From assembly GCA_963834935.1 (NCBI GenBank), contig CAWIDS010000003.1, positions 37,999 through 101,998 on the forward strand: DNA of 64,000 nt. Reading direction: 5' to 3'. Source of the DNA: Candidatus Nomurabacteria bacterium. Lineage in GTDB: Bacteria; Patescibacteriota; Minisyncoccia; Phycocordibacterales; CALRBL01. Position numbers and translations under genes: made by a program. Shown here piece after piece: positions 1-54,978 of the stretch. How positions within the stretch are numbered: the stretch's first letter is position 1; each line of letters begins with the position of its first letter. The notes beneath the pieces were generated by a model that saw only the letters and a program-made list of their open reading frames with translations, was not told the origin of the DNA and made no database searches.

Positions 1-1959
1 AAGCGGAGATTCGCCCGTGCCTGACGGCTCATATGATTTCACTTTAGGAAGAATGACAGGCAGATCCTTTTCCTTCACCGGAATGATTGTACCATCCTCG
101 GCATGGAATACTGGAATCGGCTCGCCCCAATAACGCTGCCGAGAAAAAACCCAGTCGCGGAGCTTATAGTTGACCTTGCGGGTTCCAAATCCTCCCTCGA
201 CTATGTGATTGATGATGTCCTGCCGCACTTCTCCCCATTTTCTTCCTTTGAATTTTGAAGGTTCAAGCATTATTCCGTTCCAATCCCTCGCGTAGCAGAC
301 CTCAAGATTTTTTACTTTCTGAGCTAAGACGGGATCTGCAGGAACAGTGACCACCCTGAGAGGTATGTCATATTTCTTTGCAAAAGCAAAATCACGCTCA
401 TCATGGGCGCTGCAATTGACGATTCCTGTTCCGTAATCCGATAAGACATATGATGCGATCCAGATAGGCAGATCCCTTCCTGTATCGGCAAAACTTTCTA
501 TATATCTACCGGTAAAGATTCCTTCCATGTCTTTCTCAACATCGAATTTATTCTGGGCTTTTTTCTGCTTCAGCTTGGCCACGAATTCCATCACTTTCTT
601 TTCATGAGGAGTATCTTTGACTAATTCCTCGATGAGCGGATGATCCGGCGCAATAGCAGTGAACGTTTCGGCATGATATGACTGCGGCACTGAGTTATAC
701 ATCTCAACTCTTATATCGAGATCTTTTACCTTGCATTTGAAATTGACTCCTTCGCTTCTTCCAATCCAATTCCTTTGGCTTTCCTTTATCGATTCTGGCC
801 AGTCAAGAAGCGGTTTTGGAAATCCTTTTTTCGGATCTTTGAGGCGCTCGAGCCAGATAGGTAATTCCGAATTAACCATCTTGCCCGGAACGAAATCAGC
901 TTCGTCGATCCACAGGATTTCATTATCCTTGTCTTCATCGGCGCCGATCGAGACTTTCTTGTAGCTTTTCAATTCAAGATAGACGCCGGTGGCGATCGCT
1001 ACCCTGTTCTCGCCTTTATGCTTGGTGTAATACGAAGCCTTGGTCGGGCCACCGAGAATGCGTTTGAATTCGACATCGACATAACCTGTCTCCTCCTTCA
1101 ATTCGCGGAAAACCGTATCTTTTGCGGTTTCGTCTTCTTCAATTCCGCCGATCACTACCGTATCCCAGCCGAATTTCTTGTTGCGGATGATCAGGTATTT
1201 CTTAGTCTTTGGATCGAAGACGATCGCATGAGCGACCTTTCGGATGACAAGCGGTTTTCCCGGCTGATGCGGATTGACCTTGTCGACTAGTTCCGGCATT
1301 TCATATTCGGTCGCATCCAGATCCTTGAGCAAGCGGTCTGCATAGTCGGTGATTTTCAAGATCCACTGGCGCATCATCTTTTTCTCGACAAGCGCTCCGC
1401 ACCGCTCGCAGCGGCCGTTCTCCACGTCTTCATTGGCCAGGCCTGTCATGTCTACCGGACACCAGTTGATAGGCTCGTACGCTTCGTAGGCCAAGCCTTT
1501 CTCAAGCAATTTCAAGAATATCCATTGCGTCCATTTATAATATTTCGGATCAGTGGTATTCACCTCGCGCGACCAATCGTAATCGAAGCCAAGAATTTCC
1601 AATTGCTTCTTGTAGTGCGCGACATTTTTCGCTACACCGACAGCTGGATTGGTCTTGGTCTTGATTGCATAGTTTTCCGCAGGCAATCCGAAGGCATCGA
1701 AACCCATCGGATGCAAGACATTAAAGCCTTGCATTCGCTTCATGCGCGAGATGACATCAGTGGCAATATATCCTTTCGGATGGCCGACATGAAGGCCTTC
1801 TCCGGACGGATATGGAAACATATCGAGGATATAGCATTTCTCTTTTTTGCCCTCCTCAGCTGTCTTGTAGATTTTCTTCTTTTCCCAGTCTTTCTGCCAC
1901 TTCTTCTCTATCTTGAAAGGGTCATATGATGAGCGGGACACCGGAGTTTTTTTCTTCAT
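1..1959 (-). CDS. leuS: Leucyl-tRNA synthetase, N-terminal about 650 aa; the gene continues past the window start. An extra Nudix domain is inserted.
   Basis: Reverse-strand translation starts [21 protein letters not shown] and carries the HIGH-region motif [16 protein letters not shown], the zinc-finger motif CPVD...CERCG, [9 protein letters not shown], the CP1 editing-domain motifs ([21 protein letters not shown]) and [19 protein letters not shown]. The ORF is absent from the supplied track because it runs off the window edge. Start codon complement at 1957-1959. Confidence 0.85.
   Translation of the reverse strand, partial: [653 protein letters not shown]
802..1305 (-). other. Nudix hydrolase domain inserted into LeuRS, residues about 219-386, between the zinc-finger motif and the RNWIGRSEG motif
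   Basis: Nudix box [23 protein letters not shown] (GX5EX7REUXEEXGU) inside a domain of about 160 aa. E. coli LeuRS is contiguous at this point ([24 protein letters not shown]), so this is a true insertion and not a replacement of CP1. Confidence 0.6.
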
Positions 1960-2105
1960 AAGTGTAATTATCATACACTAGAGGGAGTAATGTAGACAAA
2001 TGTATTTTTATCAGATTGCCTGGAATTGGGCACTTTCTTTTTCAAAAGAAGAAAGACAGCAAAAATTTGAAGAACTATTGAAGGTCACTATTTAATACTT
2101 ACAAC

Positions 2106-2134
2106 TTGACTTATGTATATATTTGTGGTTTACT
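2106..2134 (+). promoter_or_regulatory. Promoter with -35 TTGACT, a 17-nt spacer and an extended -10 TGgTTTACT; leaderless, with the ATG 7 nt downstream
   Basis: TTGACT at 2106-2111 and TTTACT at 2129-2134 preceded by TG; the ATG of the 2142 ORF lies exactly at the predicted transcription start. Confidence 0.45.
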
Positions 2135-2141
2135 CACATAG

Positions 2142-2408
2142 ATGAAACCTATTGTTCTTATACAGACTGGCGACCGTAGTATGGTTGTCATTTTACCATT
2201 GACCCCCGATTCCCATTCAGATGAAAGCTGGAGTCAAATGGAAAACTTGATCAAGGATGCCTGTGTCGGAGCATTCGACACGGATATGCCCTTGGAAATC
2301 GAGATGGTTGAAGCAATCGTTGAAAAACATCCTGAATGGAAATGCTGGGCACTTGAGTGTATTTCGATTTCCATACAGAGCCTCGATGATGATGAAGATT
2401 TTGGCTAA
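2142..2408 (+). CDS. Hypothetical small acidic protein (88 aa)
   Basis: ORF bounded by a sigma70-like promoter and an intrinsic terminator; no recognisable family. Confidence 0.55.
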   Translation: MKPIVLIQTGDRSMVVILPLTPDSHSDESWSQMENLIKDACVGAFDTDMPLEIEMVEAIVEKHPEWKCWALECISISIQSLDDDEDFG

Positions 2409-11774: not shown

Positions 11775-12878
11775 TCAATAATCCGCCCACGACCACTTTA
11801 TCGCATATGATCCGATTACCACCGAAATGAATGCAGTCAGAAACAGGATTATGATGTCTTTTAAAATTCCCTGTAATGAAGAATAAAAAAGAGCTTGCCT
11901 TAATCCGTCGATGGCATATCGGATGGGAATAAAGGAGCTGAGTGTCTGAAGCCATGGAGAAAGAAAAGAAATGGTGGTGAATCCTCCGCCTAAGAAATAC
12001 ATGTAAGTAGCAAAGACAGTAGCTGCCATCGCGATAGTCCTTGTTTCCTTGAAAAGCGATCCGAGGACCGCCCCCAGGCTGGAAGCGCATGTCGAGGTAG
12101 CAATGAAAATTAATATGATCGCCCACCAATGATAGAGCGGAGGATTTATGATGCCGAACAAGGAACAAAGCGCTACTGCAGGAATAAGGACTGCCAATGA
12201 AGCCAGCAAGCCCCCCGACAAGCGCCCGGCAATCAGAGTGGATGCCGATTGTGGAGCAATGAGAAGCAGGCGAGAGGTCTTCCTCTCAATGTCTTGAGCA
12301 CACATGAGGGCAGTTCCCATCAATCCTACATTGAGGATCAGCAGGACCAGAGCCGGGATGATCTGATAATCCAGCCAATCTACATTCGTCTTTCGAATGT
12401 CGTGCTCGTCCACTTGTATCAGATACGGATTCTTGCCGGCATCTGAGGAAGATATGTTAAATTGGCCGACTGAGCGGTCGACGCTTCGCCTGATGTCGTC
12501 AGCGAAATCGATATCAATATTATTCAAAGTCAGCATCACGTCTCCGCCATTCTTCATCACTTCAGCATCGAAATCGGCGGGTATAGTGATGATTGCCGCG
12601 ATCTTTTGGTCTGAGAGCATTTTTTCGGCGGTTTTCGAGTCCGTCAATGTAAGCAGATACGCATCGTCGTCAGCCTGGATGATGTGCGACATCCTTTGCG
12701 CGGCTGTACCGTTGCTGCCAAGCACCAAAGCGACTGGCTGCTGCGTCACCGTAAAGCTCAGGATCACCAGGAAGAAAGTCATCATTATCGGCGGCAGCAA
12801 GACGCTTGCCATCGCGAGCGGCATCCTCCACCACCTAAGTAGATCGAGCTGCGCTAATTTCCATATGTTCCTGATCAT
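11775..12878 (-). CDS. ABC-2 type transporter permease
   Basis: Six-transmembrane ABC-2 permease architecture with a large extracytoplasmic loop after TM1. Confidence 0.75.
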   Translation of the reverse strand: MIRNIWKLAQLDLLRWWRMPLAMASVLLPPIMMTFFLVILSFTVTQQPVALVLGSNGTAAQRMSHIIQADDDAYLLTLTDSKTAEKMLSDQKIAAIITIPADFDAEVMKNGGDVMLTLNNIDIDFADDIRRSVDRSVGQFNISSSDAGKNPYLIQVDEHDIRKTNVDWLDYQIIPALVLLILNVGLMGTALMCAQDIERKTSRLLLIAPQSASTLIAGRLSGGLLASLAVLIPAVALCSLFGIINPPLYHWWAIILIFIATSTCASSLGAVLGSLFKETRTIAMAATVFATYMYFLGGGFTTISFLSPWLQTLSSFIPIRYAIDGLRQALFYSSLQGILKDIIILFLTAFISVVIGSYAIKWSWADY

Positions 12879-38767: not shown

Positions 38768-39334
38768 CTAATACTTTCGAATGACGCCTTTCACGATAGC
38801 AGCAATAGTGAGATCATTCTCCGGAAAGATCGGCTTGTATTTCTTGTTAGCAGGTTCAAGGTAAACTTTACCACCTTTCTTGCGTAGATATTTCATCGTC
38901 CAATCACCATCTACTTGGGCGATGACGATGTCGCCATCCTTCGGCTCGTTCTTGCGCTCAACGATAACGAGATCGCCTTCTTGGATGGCGGCATCGATCA
39001 TTGAATCGCCTTTCACTTCGAGAATGTAGGTCTTGTCCTTGTCGCCGACAAGATAGTCGTCGAGGCTTAACATGTCGAGCACTTGGGAATCGGCAACCGA
39101 AGGGATTCCGGCTTCAACCAACCCAAGAAGAGGCAATTCGTTCATCAATGATGTCGGCGTCAGCCGGCCGTTGTCATCCTTGGTGACTATTCCCTCCTCA
39201 ACCAACTTATTGATCAGCTTGTAGACGGCATTCTTGGATTTGAAGCCGACCAGATCCATGATCTCCTTATACCCAGGCATGCGACGATGCCGCTTGTAGA
39301 AGGAAGTTATTTTATTCTTGTATTGCTCGTACAT
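38768..39334 (-). CDS. lexA: LexA repressor (S24 peptidase)
   Basis: N-terminal winged helix-turn-helix; Ala-Gly cleavage site (VEAGIPS); GDSM catalytic Ser; Lys in MKYLRKKGG. Confidence 0.85.
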   Translation of the reverse strand: MYEQYKNKITSFYKRHRRMPGYKEIMDLVGFKSKNAVYKLINKLVEEGIVTKDDNGRLTPTSLMNELPLLGLVEAGIPSVADSQVLDMLSLDDYLVGDKDKTYILEVKGDSMIDAAIQEGDLVIVERKNEPKDGDIVIAQVDGDWTMKYLRKKGGKVYLEPANKKYKPIFPENDLTIAAIVKGVIRKY

Positions 39335-39355
39335 ATTGATGCTTTTGTTCCTGTA

Positions 39356-39562
39356 TTATAGGACGAAAGCGCTTAAAAAACTAAGAGATTCGGAAAGCCA
39401 TGATGAAGTGTAGCCTTGTAGGTCGCGAAGCTGCCTCGAAAGGAACTTGTGTCGGCGCGCTTCATTCTTGTATGGAAGGCCCTTGATGATCTTGATATCG
39501 ATCTCTGCGTTCAGCTTCGACAATTCCCTTTCTATTTTCCTACTTAATGCGTGATTGCTCAT
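39356..39562 (-). CDS. Small protein (68 aa) encoded immediately upstream of lexA in the same operon
   Basis: ATG at 39560-39562, 21 nt ahead of lexA; coiled-coil character, possibly a DUF465-like small protein. Confidence 0.5.
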   Translation of the reverse strand: MSNHALSRKIERELSKLNAEIDIKIIKGLPYKNEARRHKFLSRQLRDLQGYTSSWLSESLSFLSAFVL

Positions 39563-39599
39563 GTTTTTGTTGGTTATTTGATAATTTTCTTATATTTAT

Positions 39600-39628
39600 A
39601 GTATAGGTGAACTTAAGTTCACCGTCAA
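39600..39628 (-). promoter_or_regulatory. SOS promoter on the minus strand: -35 TTGACG, a 17-nt spacer and -10 TATACT, with a LexA operator-like palindrome GGTGAAC-TTAA-GTTCACC (39606-39623) filling the spacer exactly
   Basis: Perfect 7-4-7 inverted repeat of the Cheo-box type GAAC-N4-GTTC, read directly from the sequence. Confidence 0.6.
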
Positions 39629-39723
39629 GCAGATAGTTGTGGATAACTGAAAAAATAGACAATATCGCGAGGAGAAAGGCATAATGATTTTTAAAAAACC
39701 ATCAAGGCTATATCAACCACCCT

Positions 39724-39750
39724 CAGCCTGCGCTAAGCAGGTTTTTTATT
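39724..39750 (+). terminator. Rho-independent terminator upstream of tRNA-Gln
   Basis: cctgc-gctaa-gcagg followed by ttttttattt. Confidence 0.5.
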
Positions 39751-39797
39751 TGCTTGAAATATGCTAAATTGGGAACCTCAAGGGACCGCCCTTACAT

Positions 39798-39871
39798 TGC
39801 GAGATCGTCTAATGGTAGGACATCAGGTTTTGGTCCTGAGTATCTAGGTTCGAGTCCTAGTCTCGCAGCCA
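39798..39871 (+). tRNA. tRNA-Gln (anticodon UUG), CCA encoded
   Basis: Hand-folded cloverleaf: acceptor tgcgaga/tctcgca; D-arm gtct-aatggta-ggac; anticodon stem tcagg/cctga with loop ttTTGgt; T-arm ctagg-ttcgagt-cctag; discriminator g followed by cca. Confidence 0.8.
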
Positions 39872-39931
39872 GCGTATTACACGCCGAGTGACCGACTCGC
39901 GTTATATTTTTCAACCTAAAAAAGTCACTCC

Positions 39932-39944
39932 GTTCGAGTCCTAG
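39932..39944 (+). repeat. 13-nt direct repeat of the tRNA-Gln T-arm (GTTCGAGTCCTAG, identical to 39848-39860); an inverted copy GACTCGAA lies at 39962-39969
   Basis: Exact match 72 nt downstream of the tRNA 3' end, resembling an attachment-site scar. Confidence 0.5.
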
Positions 39945-40031
39945 ATACATGACAGGAAAGAGACTCGAACAGCACTAGGGATGGTGGTTAAGTTTAAATG
40001 ATACAATTAGGTTTATAATATTTTAAAAACT

Positions 40032-40415
40032 ATGAACACGGAACTTATTGAATCTATAGGATCACGAGGTGAAAATTTGCTTGAGAAAAATCTTCACAAA
40101 GATGAAACCGTTCTTGTAAAATTAGGGGGTTCATTTGGTGAAGCTTTGGTTATGACAAACAAGCACGTTTATATTATTAAGTGGGGCTTAATGACCCATA
40201 ATGTTTTTGGAGGCAATTGCAATGCTTTTGATTATGGAAATATTGTTGGACTTGAGATAAAAAGAAGTCTTATAAACGGCACTGTAGAAGTTTTAACTGC
40301 TGCAAATAAAGATGTGAAGACAAGACAATCGGTTACCCGTCGCTCTCAAGGGGGAAACCCTCAGGCTCTTTCTTCAATCGCTTTTTTCTTGTCTGATTTA
40401 TCCTGTCTATTTTAA
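40032..40415 (+). CDS. Hypothetical protein (127 aa) with a bacterial PH-like (bPH/DUF304-like) signature, encoded by a low-GC gene
   Basis: KDETVLVKLGGSFGEALVMTNKHVYIIKWG; the local GC is clearly lower than in the flanks; TATAAT at 40014. Confidence 0.5.
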   Translation: MNTELIESIGSRGENLLEKNLHKDETVLVKLGGSFGEALVMTNKHVYIIKWGLMTHNVFGGNCNAFDYGNIVGLEIKRSLINGTVEVLTAANKDVKTRQSVTRRSQGGNPQALSSIAFFLSDLSCLF

Positions 40416-40563
40416 ATAAGATGTCGAAAAGCCCTGCTAAATTGCGAATACCCTCTGGATCCATGGGATCCTCTACCGCTTCATATGTTACTTCCATATT
40501 TTTTTATGAATATGACTTATAAACGAGACACCGACAGATGTCTCGCTAGGGGAATTCGTTCAG

Positions 40564-41027
40564 ATGATCCGAAAGGAAAATATGCCTGAATCAGAACCGG
40601 AGCAACAGCTCCAAAACCTACGAACGTACCTCACCATCAGCGAGCCTTTCAGACACTACCGCGGCAAATTAGGCAACGGCTGGACAGGAACAGGAATGTT
40701 CCTTGAGCTAAAAGATTCGAGTCCACGGCAATACTCGATCAGTTCGACTGGCGCAATAGCCAGATACGCGTGCTCATGAACCACCGGGCGAAACTTCGTC
40801 GAGACGGTCAACTGGCCGCATTTGAGGAACTCAGCTGCGCACTCACCAACCCTGACTTCGTCATTACTGACGAAGAGCTTCCACTTCACAAGAGAACTCC
40901 CGGCGTCCTGCTTTTGTACTACCCTGAGCGGATACTGGAATTGATCAAGTGGATGAAGCTCGTTAGTCCGGAGATAGTGGACTTGCAGCTTGGTCATCCT
41001 GGATCATTTGCATTTGGATATGAATGA
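40564..41027 (+). pseudogene. Two overlapping ORFs in different frames (71 aa and 85 aa); possibly one disrupted gene
   Basis: The ORFs at 40564-40779 and 40770-41027 overlap by 10 nt; there is no recognisable family; an antisense 113-aa ORF also exists. Confidence 0.25.
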
Positions 41028-41198
41028 TTCGCTCTTCGACCTCAAGCGCTGGCGGGATCAGGAAAATGAACCCGACAAGAATGAAATAGGGCTGAAACTT
41101 CATTTCCTTGAAAATTAAGCAGTTTGATTTCTCACACACTCAGTCCGGACGAAAGTCTAGACGGGGTGTTTTTTATTTCAAATTGGTATACTGTCCCC

Positions 41199-41657
41199 AT
41201 GCAAAATTACTGGCTCATAAAAAGCGAACCGACCTGCTATTCGATTGACGACCTTGCAAGGGACAGGCAAACGCTCTGGACCGGAGTCAGGAATTACCAA
41301 GCACGGAATTTCATGAGGGATGAGATGAAGCCGGGCGACCTTGCTCTATTTTATCATTCAAGCACCGAGGTGATCGGCGTCGTTGGCGTTGCAGAAATAT
41401 CCGGTCCGTCCGTATTCGATAAGACAGCCTTAGACAAGAAAGATGATCATTTCGACCCGAAAGCCACCAGGCAAGATCCGATCTGGTATGCGGCACAAAT
41501 AAAATTCAAAAGAAAATTGGCAAAGCCAGTGACATTGGTACAGATAAAATTCAACCCGAAGCTCAAAGGCATCATGGTAGCAGCTACCGGATCGCGCCTT
41601 TCCGTCCAACCTGTCTCGGAAGCTCATTACAAGGAAATCATTGCCATGGCGGAATAA
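41199..41657 (+). CDS. EVE (PUA-like) domain protein
   Basis: YWLIKSEP...WTGVRNYQARNFMRDEMKPGDLALFYHS; leaderless, with TGgTATACT at 41184-41192 lying 6 nt before the ATG. Confidence 0.7.
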   Translation: MQNYWLIKSEPTCYSIDDLARDRQTLWTGVRNYQARNFMRDEMKPGDLALFYHSSTEVIGVVGVAEISGPSVFDKTALDKKDDHFDPKATRQDPIWYAAQIKFKRKLAKPVTLVQIKFNPKLKGIMVAATGSRLSVQPVSEAHYKEIIAMAE

Positions 41658-42727: not shown

Positions 42728-43549
42728 TTAGAATCCGAAGATGTGCATGAAGAACTGGCCGATACCTGCCAAGAAGCCTTTAGGCTTGGCATTTTGGGGT
42801 CCTGGAGCAGGATTTGCGCCTCCGGAATTAGCACCCGCTTGTCGATCAATGATGGTAGATGCAGCGATAGCATTTCCATTTATGGTTCCCTGGACGACAA
42901 CAGTATCACCGACTGCGATATTTGAGATGCTTGCAGCGGTGTTTCCTTCAACAACTTTGGCATTCGTGGCATCAACAGTATACGAGACGTTGCTTGAATT
43001 AGTGATGACGACGGAGTCTCCGTTAATCGATGCCACTTTTCCAGCAACTATAGGATTTCCATTGCCCACGAAGGGTGCTGTGCCGGAAGCTGAGCGGGGT
43101 CCGCCTTGTGCACCCGGTGCGCCGCGCATGCCGACGCCGTCACGTATTATGGTTGCAGTGACATTCGTTCCGCTCACTGTTCCCTGGACGAAGACATTGT
43201 CGCCAGTTGCGATGTTTGAAACGCTGCTTGTAGCATTATTCTTCATCACAATCGCATTTGTCGCATCGACTGTATAAGTGACCGACGCAGCGCCCGAGCC
43301 CATGCCCTGACGGCCGCTGACCGTGATGGAATTTCCATTCACAGCCGAAACAGTACCAACAACCGCAGGACGCATGCCTCCCATCCTATATCCGCCTGGA
43401 CCCCGACCTTGCTGTCCCGAGCCTCCGCTAATACCAACATTAACGTTCGCGTTAACACCTACGCTCTGGGCAGAAGCAGGGAGAGTCAGTGAAAGGCTGG
43501 TAAAAAGGGCTGCTATGGCAATGATTGAAGCGATTTTCTTGATTTTCAT
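42728..43549 (-). CDS. Secreted protein with two tandem DUF5666-like repeats and Gly-rich linkers
   Basis: Signal peptide; repeat units ITV...VSYTVDATNA.V......SNIA.GD.V.VQGT..G....A..I occur twice. Confidence 0.65.
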   Translation of the reverse strand: MKIKKIASIIAIAALFTSLSLTLPASAQSVGVNANVNVGISGGSGQQGRGPGGYRMGGMRPAVVGTVSAVNGNSITVSGRQGMGSGAASVTYTVDATNAIVMKNNATSSVSNIATGDNVFVQGTVSGTNVTATIIRDGVGMRGAPGAQGGPRSASGTAPFVGNGNPIVAGKVASINGDSVVITNSSNVSYTVDATNAKVVEGNTAASISNIAVGDTVVVQGTINGNAIAASTIIDRQAGANSGGANPAPGPQNAKPKGFLAGIGQFFMHIFGF

Positions 43550-54024: not shown

Positions 54025-54978
54025 ATGCAGCCTTCGCGAAAGACTTCTTGGATTCCTTTGCTTCTTCTCATCGCAGTCGTTGGTGCCGGCTTCTATTACA
54101 AAGCCCCGCTGCTCAATCTCGTCCAGACGATCGAGACAAGCTTCCAGCCGAAGCCGTGCGAGAAGCCTATTACCTATTCCGTCGTCAGCTTCGATCCGCG
54201 TTTCGGTTTGAGCAAACAGGATTTTATCAATGACTTGGAACAAGCGGCATCTATCTGGCAAGGAGCGCTCAACCGTCCCCTTCTTCAGTACGTGCAGCAA
54301 GGAGGCGTAGTCAGCGTCAATCTCGTTTACGATCAAAGGCAGGCTTCCACAGTCAAACAGCAGCAGATCAGCACACACATCGACAGCAAGCGCACAGCCT
54401 ATGAATCGCTTAAAGCTGAATTCGATTCGGAAAAAGCGGCCTACGACCAGCAGAAAGCTGACCTTGATGCGAAGATAAGCGCCTATGAATCGCAAAAAAA
54501 CTCTTACCAGCAAGAAGTTGACTACTGGAACAGCCAAGGCGGCGCACAACCAGCGGAGTATGCGAAGCTGCAAGCCGAGAAGCAAAGTCTCGATAACCAG
54601 AATGCGGAGCTGACTGAGGAAGAACAGCGGGTCAACGCATCAGCAGTACAGCTCAACCAAACCGTCACTAATCTTAACGCGATGGTAAAGGATCTCAATC
54701 TCAATGTGGCTACTTATAATTCGGTTGGAGATGCCGTCGGACCAAACTTTGCCGAAGGTGAATATGTCACTGGTCCTTCGGGAAGGATGATAAATATCTA
54801 TCAATATAGCAGCCAGGACAAGCTCATCCGCGTACTTGCTCACGAGATGGGACATGCCCTCGGTCTCCAGCACATCAACAATCCGAGAGCCATCATGTAC
54901 TACTTGAATGAAGGAGTGAATGATCAGCTCACTCAGGACGATATCAATGAATTAAAACAAGTTTGCGGAACCAATTAA
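54025..54978 (+). CDS. Matrixin-like zinc metalloprotease (metzincin), membrane-anchored, with a coiled-coil spacer
   Basis: HEMGHALGLQH (HExxHxxGxxH) motif; leaderless, with TGaTATAAT at 54010-54018 lying 6 nt before the ATG. Confidence 0.8.
   Translation: MQPSRKTSWIPLLLLIAVVGAGFYYKAPLLNLVQTIETSFQPKPCEKPITYSVVSFDPRFGLSKQDFINDLEQAASIWQGALNRPLLQYVQQGGVVSVNLVYDQRQASTVKQQQISTHIDSKRTAYESLKAEFDSEKAAYDQQKADLDAKISAYESQKNSYQQEVDYWNSQGGAQPAEYAKLQAEKQSLDNQNAELTEEEQRVNASAVQLNQTVTNLNAMVKDLNLNVATYNSVGDAVGPNFAEGEYVTGPSGRMINIYQYSSQDKLIRVLAHEMGHALGLQHINNPRAIMYYLNEGVNDQLTQDDINELKQVCGTN

Follow-up and report, generated by a model that had tools for sequence, protein, structure and literature searches.

A possible remnant of horizontally acquired DNA downstream of tRNA-Gln in a Paceibacterota-like genome

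Results

Overview of the locus

Just 3' of a functional tRNA-Gln gene, a Paceibacterota-like (CPR) genome carries what has about an even chance of being the scattered remains of horizontally acquired DNA. At this point the window (the whole 64-kb stretch of DNA analysed) holds an exact copy of part of the T-arm of the tRNA, a low-GC block and a truncated gene of the bPH_3(+SHOCT) family (Table 1). The extreme composition, the truncation, the non-random T-arm copy and the mobile-element-like contexts in which relatives of the gene are found together support the presence of decayed DNA of foreign origin immediately 3' of the tRNA gene. In this respect the first-pass annotation, which proposed a decayed island, is supported; the classic attachment scar bounding a cargo, which was part of the same proposal, is not.

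Table 1. Features of the tRNA-Gln locus, in window coordinates.
Feature	Position	Strand	Description and basis
tRNA-Gln(UUG)	39798-39871	+	intact, CCA encoded; ARAGORN; Rfam RF00005, 61.7 bits, E 1.9e-12
DR1, GTTCGAGTCCTAG	39848-39860	+	within tRNA-Gln; G53, T-loop and 3' T-stem
Hairpin CGAGT-GACCG-ACTCG (GC-rich), then T-rich run	39885-39912	+	consensus terminator scan; folding
DR2, GTTCGAGTCCTAG	39932-39944	+	exact 13-nt copy of T-loop and 3' T-stem; left edge of low-GC block
Inverted 9-nt copy, GACTCGAAC	39962-39970	+	pairs with 39932-39940, 21-nt loop
bPH_3(+SHOCT) family gene, 127 aa	40032-40415	+	AT-rich, 3'-truncated; homology, AF2 model, composition
Spacer	40416-40563	.	without convincing coding signal (every frame scores about zero or less; no family matches)
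ORF A	40564-40779	+	contains TTCGAGTCC at 40716-40724
ORF B	40776-41027	+	ATGA overlap with ORF A
ORF C	41020-41118	+	ATGAATGA overlap with ORF B
EVE (PUA-like) domain gene	41199-41657	+	stand-alone; PF01878, E 4.8e-50, profile positions 1-145 of 145

Both the tRNA-Gln gene and the 13-nt direct repeat of its T-arm (CTAGG-TTCGAGT-CCTAG, 39844-39860) are confirmed as first annotated, by ARAGORN, Rfam and the sequence itself. The tRNA is the sole known RNA family in an Rfam scan of 39300-41400; a plant-virus pseudoknot match in the AT-rich sequence is sub-threshold (E 0.18) and was dismissed. The hairpin that follows the gene folds at -9.3 kcal/mol (z -1.4), appears as a terminator-like site in the consensus scan, and is likely the terminator of the tRNA-Gln gene.

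Composition of the block and truncation of the bPH gene

The gene at 40032-40415 is the strongest compositional outlier of the window (GC 0.34, GC3 0.26, z -7.7), and its markedly AT-rich character, already noted in the first-pass annotation, is upheld by both windowed GC and codon usage. GC3 in resident genes is 0.583 +/- 0.042, and none of 117 resident 96-codon chunks is as low. The lowest-GC 400-nt stretch of the window is 39901-40300 (0.34, z -4.0). The atypical composition is confined to about 39900-40330; the ORFs at 40564-41118 and the EVE gene lie outside it and have host-like GC.

The encoded protein matches no Pfam family at E<=0.1, bPH_3 (PF14470) included, and its family membership is transitive, through 50% identity over aa 5-96 (E 6e-31) to P0002, a 185-aa protein with a SHOCT domain (PF09851). 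Identity to family members is 50-57% over the ~95-aa core, and in an alignment of the family (A1) bPH_3 is matched by 8 of 18 members (best E 3.4e-7) and SHOCT by 10 of 18. The AF2 model (pLDDT 81.8) has residues 1-96 as a confident PH-like beta-sandwich (residues 11-90 at pLDDT 86-97), and its best PDB matches are the bacterial PH domains 3hsa and 3dcx (DUF1696; probability 1.0, TM about 0.5). The earlier description of the protein as bPH-like is thus borne out despite the lack of a Pfam match of its own, the protein being PH-like at the level of family and of predicted fold.

The family comprises 233 representative clusters, mostly of 170-330 aa, and after the core its members keep a conserved strand, a helix and SHOCT. 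Confident homology of the window protein to the family covers aa 1-96 only. The conserved helix is present even in aligned members without SHOCT (142-175 aa) but is missing in the window protein, the model of which ends in a tail that is disordered at 97-107, with at most one strand and a C-terminal capping helix of 4 residues. MAFFT and AF2 indicate that this tail may still hold the last beta-strand. In the six-frame translation of the window the family profile (E<=10) finds no SHOCT and matches only the bPH ORF, up to position 122 of 181. The gene is truncated, having lost SHOCT entirely and the C-terminal helix for the most part. However, short family members of 121-146 aa occur, and a natural short form may be an alternative to truncation.

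Genomic context of relatives

At 55% identity, P0123 is the nearest homologue of the bPH protein, and is found at a locus (L095) that carries, in order, an XRE HTH gene, bPH-SHOCT, orf176, a large serine recombinase and tRNA-Val. The recombinase is 603 aa long and its gene runs 28 nt into tRNA-Val. P0002 also has an XRE gene upstream, and both donor-type contigs are AT-rich like the window fragment (L095 at 0.35 GC). The L095 element resembles the window in having the same gene family adjacent to a tRNA gene on an AT-rich background, but the tRNA is tRNA-Val rather than tRNA-Gln, and the window lacks the recombinase, the XRE gene and orf176. The orientation of bPH relative to the tRNA is also opposite, so that deletion alone would not turn an L095-like element into the window locus. 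A phage or ICE origin of the bPH gene is not substantiated: a close-pattern search finds no match to the gene in GenBank phages, PLSDB plasmids or IMG/VR, and among PHROGs only phrog_2700 is matched (P0002 4.9e-19, window protein E 0.017).

LexA alone has a second member in its 90% cluster (P0273); the 12 other window proteins checked are all singletons. In the one sibling lineage, to which P0273 belongs (L090/L091), the order cupin, LexA, orf68, tRNA-Gln is conserved, at a DNA identity of only about 75%, and the L090 tRNA-Gln gene is the same gene, with compensatory changes in its stems. The L090 contig ends 227 nt past the tRNA, and those 227 nt match nothing in the window; at ~75% identity this failure to align is expected anyway and proves nothing. 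LexA homologues are found in five more distant contexts, all without the tRNA at this position, and a pattern of the tRNA 5' half matched only an unrelated AT-rich CPR lineage in JGI metagenomes.

ORFs A-C and the EVE gene

ORFs A-C have weak codon scores (-0.02 to 0.24, versus 0.32 +/- 0.09 per codon in resident genes). Those at 40564-41027 have no homologues among 5.8 billion proteins, taken as parts or as a fusion, and those at 40564-41118 have no Pfam, PHROG, NCBIfam or PADLOC matches. The overlap of ORFs A and B is real, but their interpretation as a single broken gene is not sustained, given the absence of homologues and the ATGA overlap, which argues for two ORFs rather than a frameshift. 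ORFs A-C appear to overlap in the manner of coupled small genes, and are ORFans of uncertain status. A minus-strand ORF of 54 aa is also called at 40333-40497, overlapping the spacer.

The EVE gene, correctly recognised in the first-pass annotation, has GC 0.48, GC3 0.55 and a codon score of 0.21, all within the resident range. Its protein has 473 relatives in many phyla, with identity of at most 59%; in GTDB genomes, 80 loci of such relatives (identity <=59%) were found, and tRNA-Gln is present at none of the 10 CPR or unclassified loci scanned. The EVE gene is probably a resident chromosomal gene outside the remnant, and the DoxX-like gene is probably resident as well. A defence-associated cargo role for EVE is unsupported: its composition is host-like, and PADLOC at E<=0.01 matches neither the EVE protein nor any of the other products searched (bPH, ORF A, ORF B, the DoxX-like protein, orf68 and a 273-aa protein at 42728-43549). 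The last has a faint match to DUF5666.

Extent of the T-arm copies

DR2 lies 84 nt downstream of DR1, with 71 nt (39861-39931) between the copies. It corresponds to tRNA positions 51-63 of 74 only, an internal fragment that lacks the last 11 nt, made up of the acceptor strand and CCA. In the 5' direction the likeness of DR1 and DR2 reaches 22 nt at 82% (18/22), into the variable-loop region. On the 3' side it ends abruptly, with ATACATG after DR2 versus the acceptor strand TCTCGCA in the tRNA, and the bases that follow DR2 (ATACATGACAG) match those of the tRNA (TCTCGCAGCCA) at 2 of 11 positions. A DR2-specific 19-mer has 0 matches in IMG/VR. A 25-mer of the tRNA 3' end has one match there, in a 100-kb viral contig with tRNA-Pro genes. 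The match falls where the stored part of the contig stops, and is uninformative.

The inverted copy, first annotated as 39962-39969, is present but is one base longer than described, ending at 39970. It forms a 9-bp hairpin with DR2 that is of unremarkable stability (z -0.8 to -1.5), and was rejected as a stable RNA element, folding no better than shuffles. A 9-nt inverted copy of a tRNA segment is seen in 4% of simulations, and alone is near chance level. The further copy that had been reported inside an ORF is also confirmed; it extends to 11/12 with its flanks (AGATTCGAGTCC), 783 nt downstream of DR2, and is then followed by unrelated sequence. This copy sits in a 52%-GC ORF (ORF A), away from any compositional boundary, and the 9-mer TTCGAGTCC is found again at 12634, 27 kb away. 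A direct copy of at least 13 nt of any tRNA segment, at most 200 nt downstream, arises in 5 of 40,000 Markov simulations (~1e-4). The 13-nt T-arm copy is not a chance match.

Origin of the T-arm copies

If the low-GC block is foreign, the 13-nt copy and its 9-nt inverted partner would most likely be a vestige of the recombination site of the incoming element, or a product of recombination or repair at T-arm homology. DR1 and DR2 are not a canonical attL/attR pair, and bracket nothing today.

An unlikely, though by no means negligible, alternative is that the T-arm copy was made without site-specific integration, as a small duplication or a templated patch, while a fast-decaying intergenic or pseudogene stretch was being rearranged. 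Slippage, template switching or filling-in during repair, perhaps where a deletion was joined, would be the mechanism. The shortness of the copy, its proximity to the original and its sharp 3' edge are all in keeping with this, as are the inverted copy of the same core 30 nt away and the truncated gene in the region. Furthermore, the junction of DR2 with its 3' flank is spanned by 9 nt, CCTAGATAC, whose reverse complement is identical to GTATCTAGG in tRNA-Gln (variable loop and 5' T-stem), a pattern as would come from hairpin-templated synthesis. However, this amounts to 4 complementary bases beyond the palindromic T-stem, a 1/256 chance found post hoc, and there is nothing that indicates a patch directly. 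A tendency to templated insertions is not known in CPR genomes.

The classical form of a decayed tRNA-integrated island is improbable. In this reading a tyrosine integrase would have left DR1, DR2 and possibly also the copy at 40716 as attL/attR cores, and the bPH gene, the ORF pair and EVE would be the surviving cargo of the island. The T-arm copy is indeed non-random and has a third counterpart further downstream, the first gene is foreign in composition, and T-stem or junction crossover sites are used by many islands (PMC4383910). However, under the Islander rules the displaced fragment comes from one end of the tRNA gene (the 3' end for a downstream island) and has the same orientation, the island is located in the interval that separates it from the intact gene, and internal tRNA fragments are explicitly rejected (PMC4383910). 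DR2 does not reach the tRNA 3' end, and both it and the 40716 copy are internal fragments that give way to unrelated sequence; the AT-rich gene, the ORFs and EVE all lie beyond DR2, outside the DR1-DR2 interval. EVE and the ORFs are host-like in GC, and the 40716 copy has no compositional boundary beside it and its 9-mer recurs elsewhere. Atypical composition, as expected of inserted DNA, is found in the low-GC block only. No integrase is recognisable by inspection (rather than HMM search) of ORFs of at least 110 aa at 28-54 kb, in agreement with the first-pass annotation, and the ORFs of the locus have no Pfam recombinase match. Thus, with an internal copy, a 71-nt interval, cargo outside it and no integrase, the claim that duplication of a tRNA 3' segment has left a classic attachment scar is unsupported.

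Like tRNA-gene islands and prophage remnants of the Islander type (PMC4383910), the window has DNA of foreign composition that begins 3' of a tRNA gene, with tRNA sequence repeated directly over a short length close by, and a cargo family that is found next to recombinases and tRNAs elsewhere; it differs in the internal copy, the 71 nt enclosed, the missing integrase and the size of the whole remnant (<1.3 kb). In another genome of the same phylum (Paceibacterota; L011, JBBDKB010000030.1), part of a tRNA is likewise repeated directly a short distance away, beside an EVE gene, but the scar there is canonical: a 19-nt 3'-end copy of tRNA-Ala, 186 nt away, that begins in the T-loop, takes in the acceptor strand and reaches the discriminator, whereas the window copy stops at the end of the T-stem.

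It is also improbable that nothing happened at the locus, the 13-mer being due to chance and 40032-40415 being a functional, resident, short bPH gene that is simply AT-rich. Two local 13-mer repeats are observed in the whole window, the second at 54397/54481, and at least one is seen in about 23% of simulated 64-kb windows; short family members are known, and the PH core is modelled with high confidence. However, for such a repeat to hit the single tRNA has a chance of only ~1e-4, no resident chunk has a GC3 comparable to that of the gene, and the tail has a coding score of -0.40 per codon and is missing the helix that SHOCT-less members keep.

That DR2 is all that can still be recognised of a decayed tRNA gene once in tandem with tRNA-Gln is very improbable. 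The 84-nt spacing is close to that of one tRNA plus spacer, the 18/22 likeness reaches 5' into the variable-loop region, and ARAGORN, with its default thresholds lowered to 60%, places a 'tRNA-???' precisely at 39872-39951. However, ARAGORN is silent at thresholds of 80% or more, and at 60-70% also yields noise on the opposite strand; RF00005 has no match at E<=10 in a 171-nt search (39865-40035) and none at E<=1 in the wider scan. The would-be T-stem pairs at 3 of 5 positions, there is no acceptor stem, and an exact 13-mer beside wholly unrelated sequence is unlike uniform decay. A second pseudo-tRNA, which the first-pass annotation had itself named as an observation that would refute its reading, was looked for with ARAGORN and Rfam and not found.

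Finally, there is only a slender chance that DR2 and its inverted partner (39932-39970) are the site at which a CPR mobile element recombines, or did so until recently. Its recombinase, possibly a large serine recombinase of the L095 type, would read the T-arm hairpin itself rather than an identity block reaching the tRNA 3' end; were this so, such elements would insert beside unsplit tRNA genes and internal T-arm copies would be their sole scar.

Discussion

In the reading preferred here, that of a small remnant of horizontally acquired DNA, the foreign block would extend from just past the terminator hairpin to about 40320-40415, at ~34% GC, and would hold the 5' two-thirds of a bPH_3+SHOCT gene. 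A deletion would have taken the C-terminal helix and SHOCT, and probably also the rest of the element, including its recombinase. We infer the foreign origin, this history of deletion and a link of the T-arm copy to recombination; the tRNA, the repeat, the composition, the truncation, the family and the fold are seen directly in the results above.

The locus matters little beyond its annotation. It serves as a worked example that short tRNA-like repeats need to be checked against the real geometry of attachment scars before an island is called. For the organism, it suggests that a CPR genome here took up foreign DNA at a tRNA gene and then eroded it. For the bPH_3+SHOCT family, its occurrence beside XRE regulators and recombinases offers a minor lead to those cataloguing the accessory genes of mobile elements.

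An AT-rich, probably 3'-truncated bPH gene

Among 400-nt stretches of the 64-kb window, 39901-40300 has the lowest GC (0.34, z -4.0). GC3 over codons 1-96 of the bPH gene is 0.26; 31 resident genes give 0.583 +/- 0.042, and all 117 resident chunks of 96 codons reach at least 0.438. The marked AT-richness noted in the first-pass annotation is thus confirmed by both measures. The second-lowest stretch of the window (1811-2210; 0.36, z -3.5) resembles by sequence an intergenic region or promoter separating divergent genes.

The bPH protein has 50% identity over residues 5-96 to P0002, a 185-aa homologue with a SHOCT domain, and HMMER, run in full against 1.84 billion representatives, gave a family of 233 clusters, mostly of 170-330 aa. 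In an 18-member family alignment, bPH_3 (PF14470) is matched by 8 sequences and SHOCT by 10. The AlphaFold model (pLDDT 81.8) has a confident beta-sandwich at residues 1-96, and its top PDB matches, 3hsa and 3dcx, are bacterial PH domains. Although the protein has no Pfam match of its own, family alignment and predicted fold therefore agree with its description as PH-like. The family conserves a strand and a capping helix after the core, usually with SHOCT too. In the model, a disordered segment (residues 97-107) leads to one more strand and a terminal helix of only 4 residues; the coding score of the last 31 codons is negative, and no remnant of the post-core strand, helix or SHOCT was found anywhere in the window by six-frame profile search. 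Thus, the gene is truncated at its 3' end or, at best, represents an unusually short variant, and the 40032 region is probably a foreign, truncated remnant.

Features of the tRNA-Gln locus and of the closest bPH relative
Feature	Position	Remarks
tRNA-Gln(UUG)	39798-39871	sole tRNA in window (ARAGORN); 61.7 bits (Rfam tRNA model)
DR1	39848-39860	13-mer in tRNA-Gln T-arm
Candidate tRNA terminator	39885-39912	GC-rich hairpin, then T-rich run; plausible
DR2	39932-39944	downstream copy of DR1
bPH gene	40032-40415 (+)	
ORF A	40564-40779	71 aa, no known relatives
ORF B	40776-41027	83 aa, no known relatives
ORF C	41020-41118	32 aa, no known relatives
EVE gene	41199-41657 (+)	
Large serine recombinase gene with tRNA-Val(GAC)	L095 6229-8087 (Logan SRR22387922 contig)	recombinase of 603 aa; XRE, bPH-SHOCT and 176-aa HTH-like ORF (orf176) upstream

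The closest homologue, P0123 (55% identity), is encoded on a contig of 35% GC (L095) in the order XRE HTH, bPH-SHOCT, orf176, large serine recombinase. The last of these genes extends with its 3' end 28 nt into the 3' part of tRNA-Val(GAC), which is on the opposite strand, a possible case of a tRNA-gene insertion that uses a serine, not tyrosine, recombinase. The P0002 gene likewise lies downstream of an XRE-type gene, and P0002 matches phrog_2700 (E 4.9e-19). These features of the relatives give moderate support to an origin of the bPH fragment in a mobile element of an AT-rich donor. In the proposed comparison with phage and ICE cargo, close-pattern searches with the bPH gene itself gave no match in GenBank phages, PLSDB plasmids or IMG/VR.

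The T-arm copy downstream of tRNA-Gln

The T-arm of tRNA-Gln is CTAGG-TTCGAGT-CCTAG (39844-39860), and CCA is encoded. The T-arm copies had been correctly located: the 13-mer GTTCGAGTCCTAG starts at 39848 and 39932 and is absent from the rest of the window; the inverted core copy reported at 39962-39969 is 9 nt long (GACTCGAAC, 39962-39970; reverse complement of the first 9 nt of DR2); and TTCGAGTCC is found again at 40716, and also at 12634. DR1/DR2 similarity reaches 22 nt on the 5' side with mismatches (18/22), and the 3' edge is sharp, with TCTCGCAGCCA next in the tRNA versus ATACATGACAG in DR2. Markov-simulated sequence for the 200 nt that follow the tRNA contained a direct copy (at least 13 nt of any tRNA segment) in 5 of 40,000 runs and a 9-nt inverted copy in 4%. 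Local 13-mer repeats alone are not rare (2 in the whole window; at least one in 23% of simulated windows), and the repeat is taken as non-random because it is tied to the window's only tRNA. Folding of the DR2 hairpin and the entire spacer is not better than that of shuffled sequence. The other exact local 13-mer repeat, GCCTATGAATCGC (54397-54409 and 54481-54493, inside ORF 54025-54978), likewise has its copies 84 nt (28 codons) apart and may be an internal protein repeat.

A second tRNA or pseudo-tRNA as the source of DR2 is rejected, as ARAGORN found no further tRNA down to 80% of its thresholds (60-70% gave noise calls on both strands) and Rfam, run on 2.1 kb with a limit of E<=1 and on 171 nt with E<=10, no tRNA-like match besides tRNA-Gln.

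The repeat had been read as a classic attachment scar. In tRNA-gene integration, the gene is restored from island sequence and an end fragment is displaced, the island sitting between the two; the Islander algorithm rejects internal tRNA fragments and requires an integrase (PMC4383910). DR2 is an internal fragment, DR1 to DR2 encloses 71 nt, the proposed cargo lies outside both copies and, as previously claimed, no integrase was seen by inspection among ORFs of at least 110 aa at 28-54 kb. The repeat is therefore not a classic scar. In contrast, a Paceibacterota MAG (L011, JBBDKB010000030.1, 10486-10770) shows a textbook att-type scar with hardly any sequence inside: 19 nt of the tRNA-Ala(UGC) 3' end, from T-loop to discriminator, are repeated 186 nt from that tRNA gene, immediately behind an EVE gene. 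Part of tRNA-Ala(UGC) is duplicated in L011 by an N-run scaffold gap as well. The window's T-arm copy is non-random, yet without the anatomy of an attachment scar; its derivation from site-specific recombination is somewhat doubtful, the main rival being a local templated duplication.

In an AT-rich CPR metagenome contig (JGI, L086), a ~107-nt insertion (311-417) sits precisely at the 5' boundary of a nearly identical tRNA-Gln, with ATTGCGAGA duplicated on its flanks and a GC-rich palindrome inside; the uninterrupted counterpart is found in another such contig (L085, 4765-4775). The insert looks like a small MITE-like insertion whose target duplication includes the first tRNA bases. Two Logan contigs of run ERR10755936 (L083, L001) meet inside the window's tRNA-Gln with an 18-nt overlap (39815-39832); the assembly graph thus branches there, which could reflect strain variation or k-mers common to other organisms. 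A 100.8-kb viral contig (IMGVR_UViG_3300021088_000005) has at 2041-2065 an exact match to the final 25 nt of the window's tRNA-Gln. The match closes the available part of that contig, lies ~0.9 kb from two tRNA-Pro genes and probably belongs to a phage-encoded tRNA.

ORFs A-C and the EVE gene

ORFs A and B overlap by ATGA (ATG at 40776, TGA at 40777-40779) and ORFs B and C by ATGAATGA (41020-41027), which by sequence appears as the layout of translationally coupled small genes, not a frameshift. ORF A, ORF B and their fusion have no homologues, and the broken gene proposed at 40564-41027 is not sustained. Neither ORF has a significant match in Pfam, PHROG, NCBIfam or PADLOC (the sole profile match of ORF A, IGPS at E 0.079, is far below cut-off), and their codon scores are weak.

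The EVE domain is well supported (PF01878, E 4.8e-50), but not its role as defence-associated island cargo. The gene is treated as resident, since its GC is host-like, its codon score lies inside the resident range, the protein has no match in the PADLOC defence library, and its hundreds of relatives are spread across phyla in varied contexts.

Comparison with related genomes

LexA matches at 68-76% identity bear Paceibacterota-like names, suggesting a Paceibacterota-like organism. Of the window proteins checked, 12 are singletons in 90% clusters; LexA, the exception, has one cluster mate, leading to contigs L090 and L091, which share cupin, LexA, orf68 and tRNA-Gln with the window. L090 ends 227 nt past the tRNA, and these 227 nt have no match in the window, the sibling being merely ~75% identical in DNA. 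More distant relatives have no tRNA at the corresponding position.

Of the decayed island proposed beside the tRNA, the foreign, decayed DNA is supported (GC3, truncated bPH gene) and the attachment scar, the repeat being an internal fragment, is not. The locus is real but ordinary: decayed, probably foreign DNA adjoining a tRNA gene.
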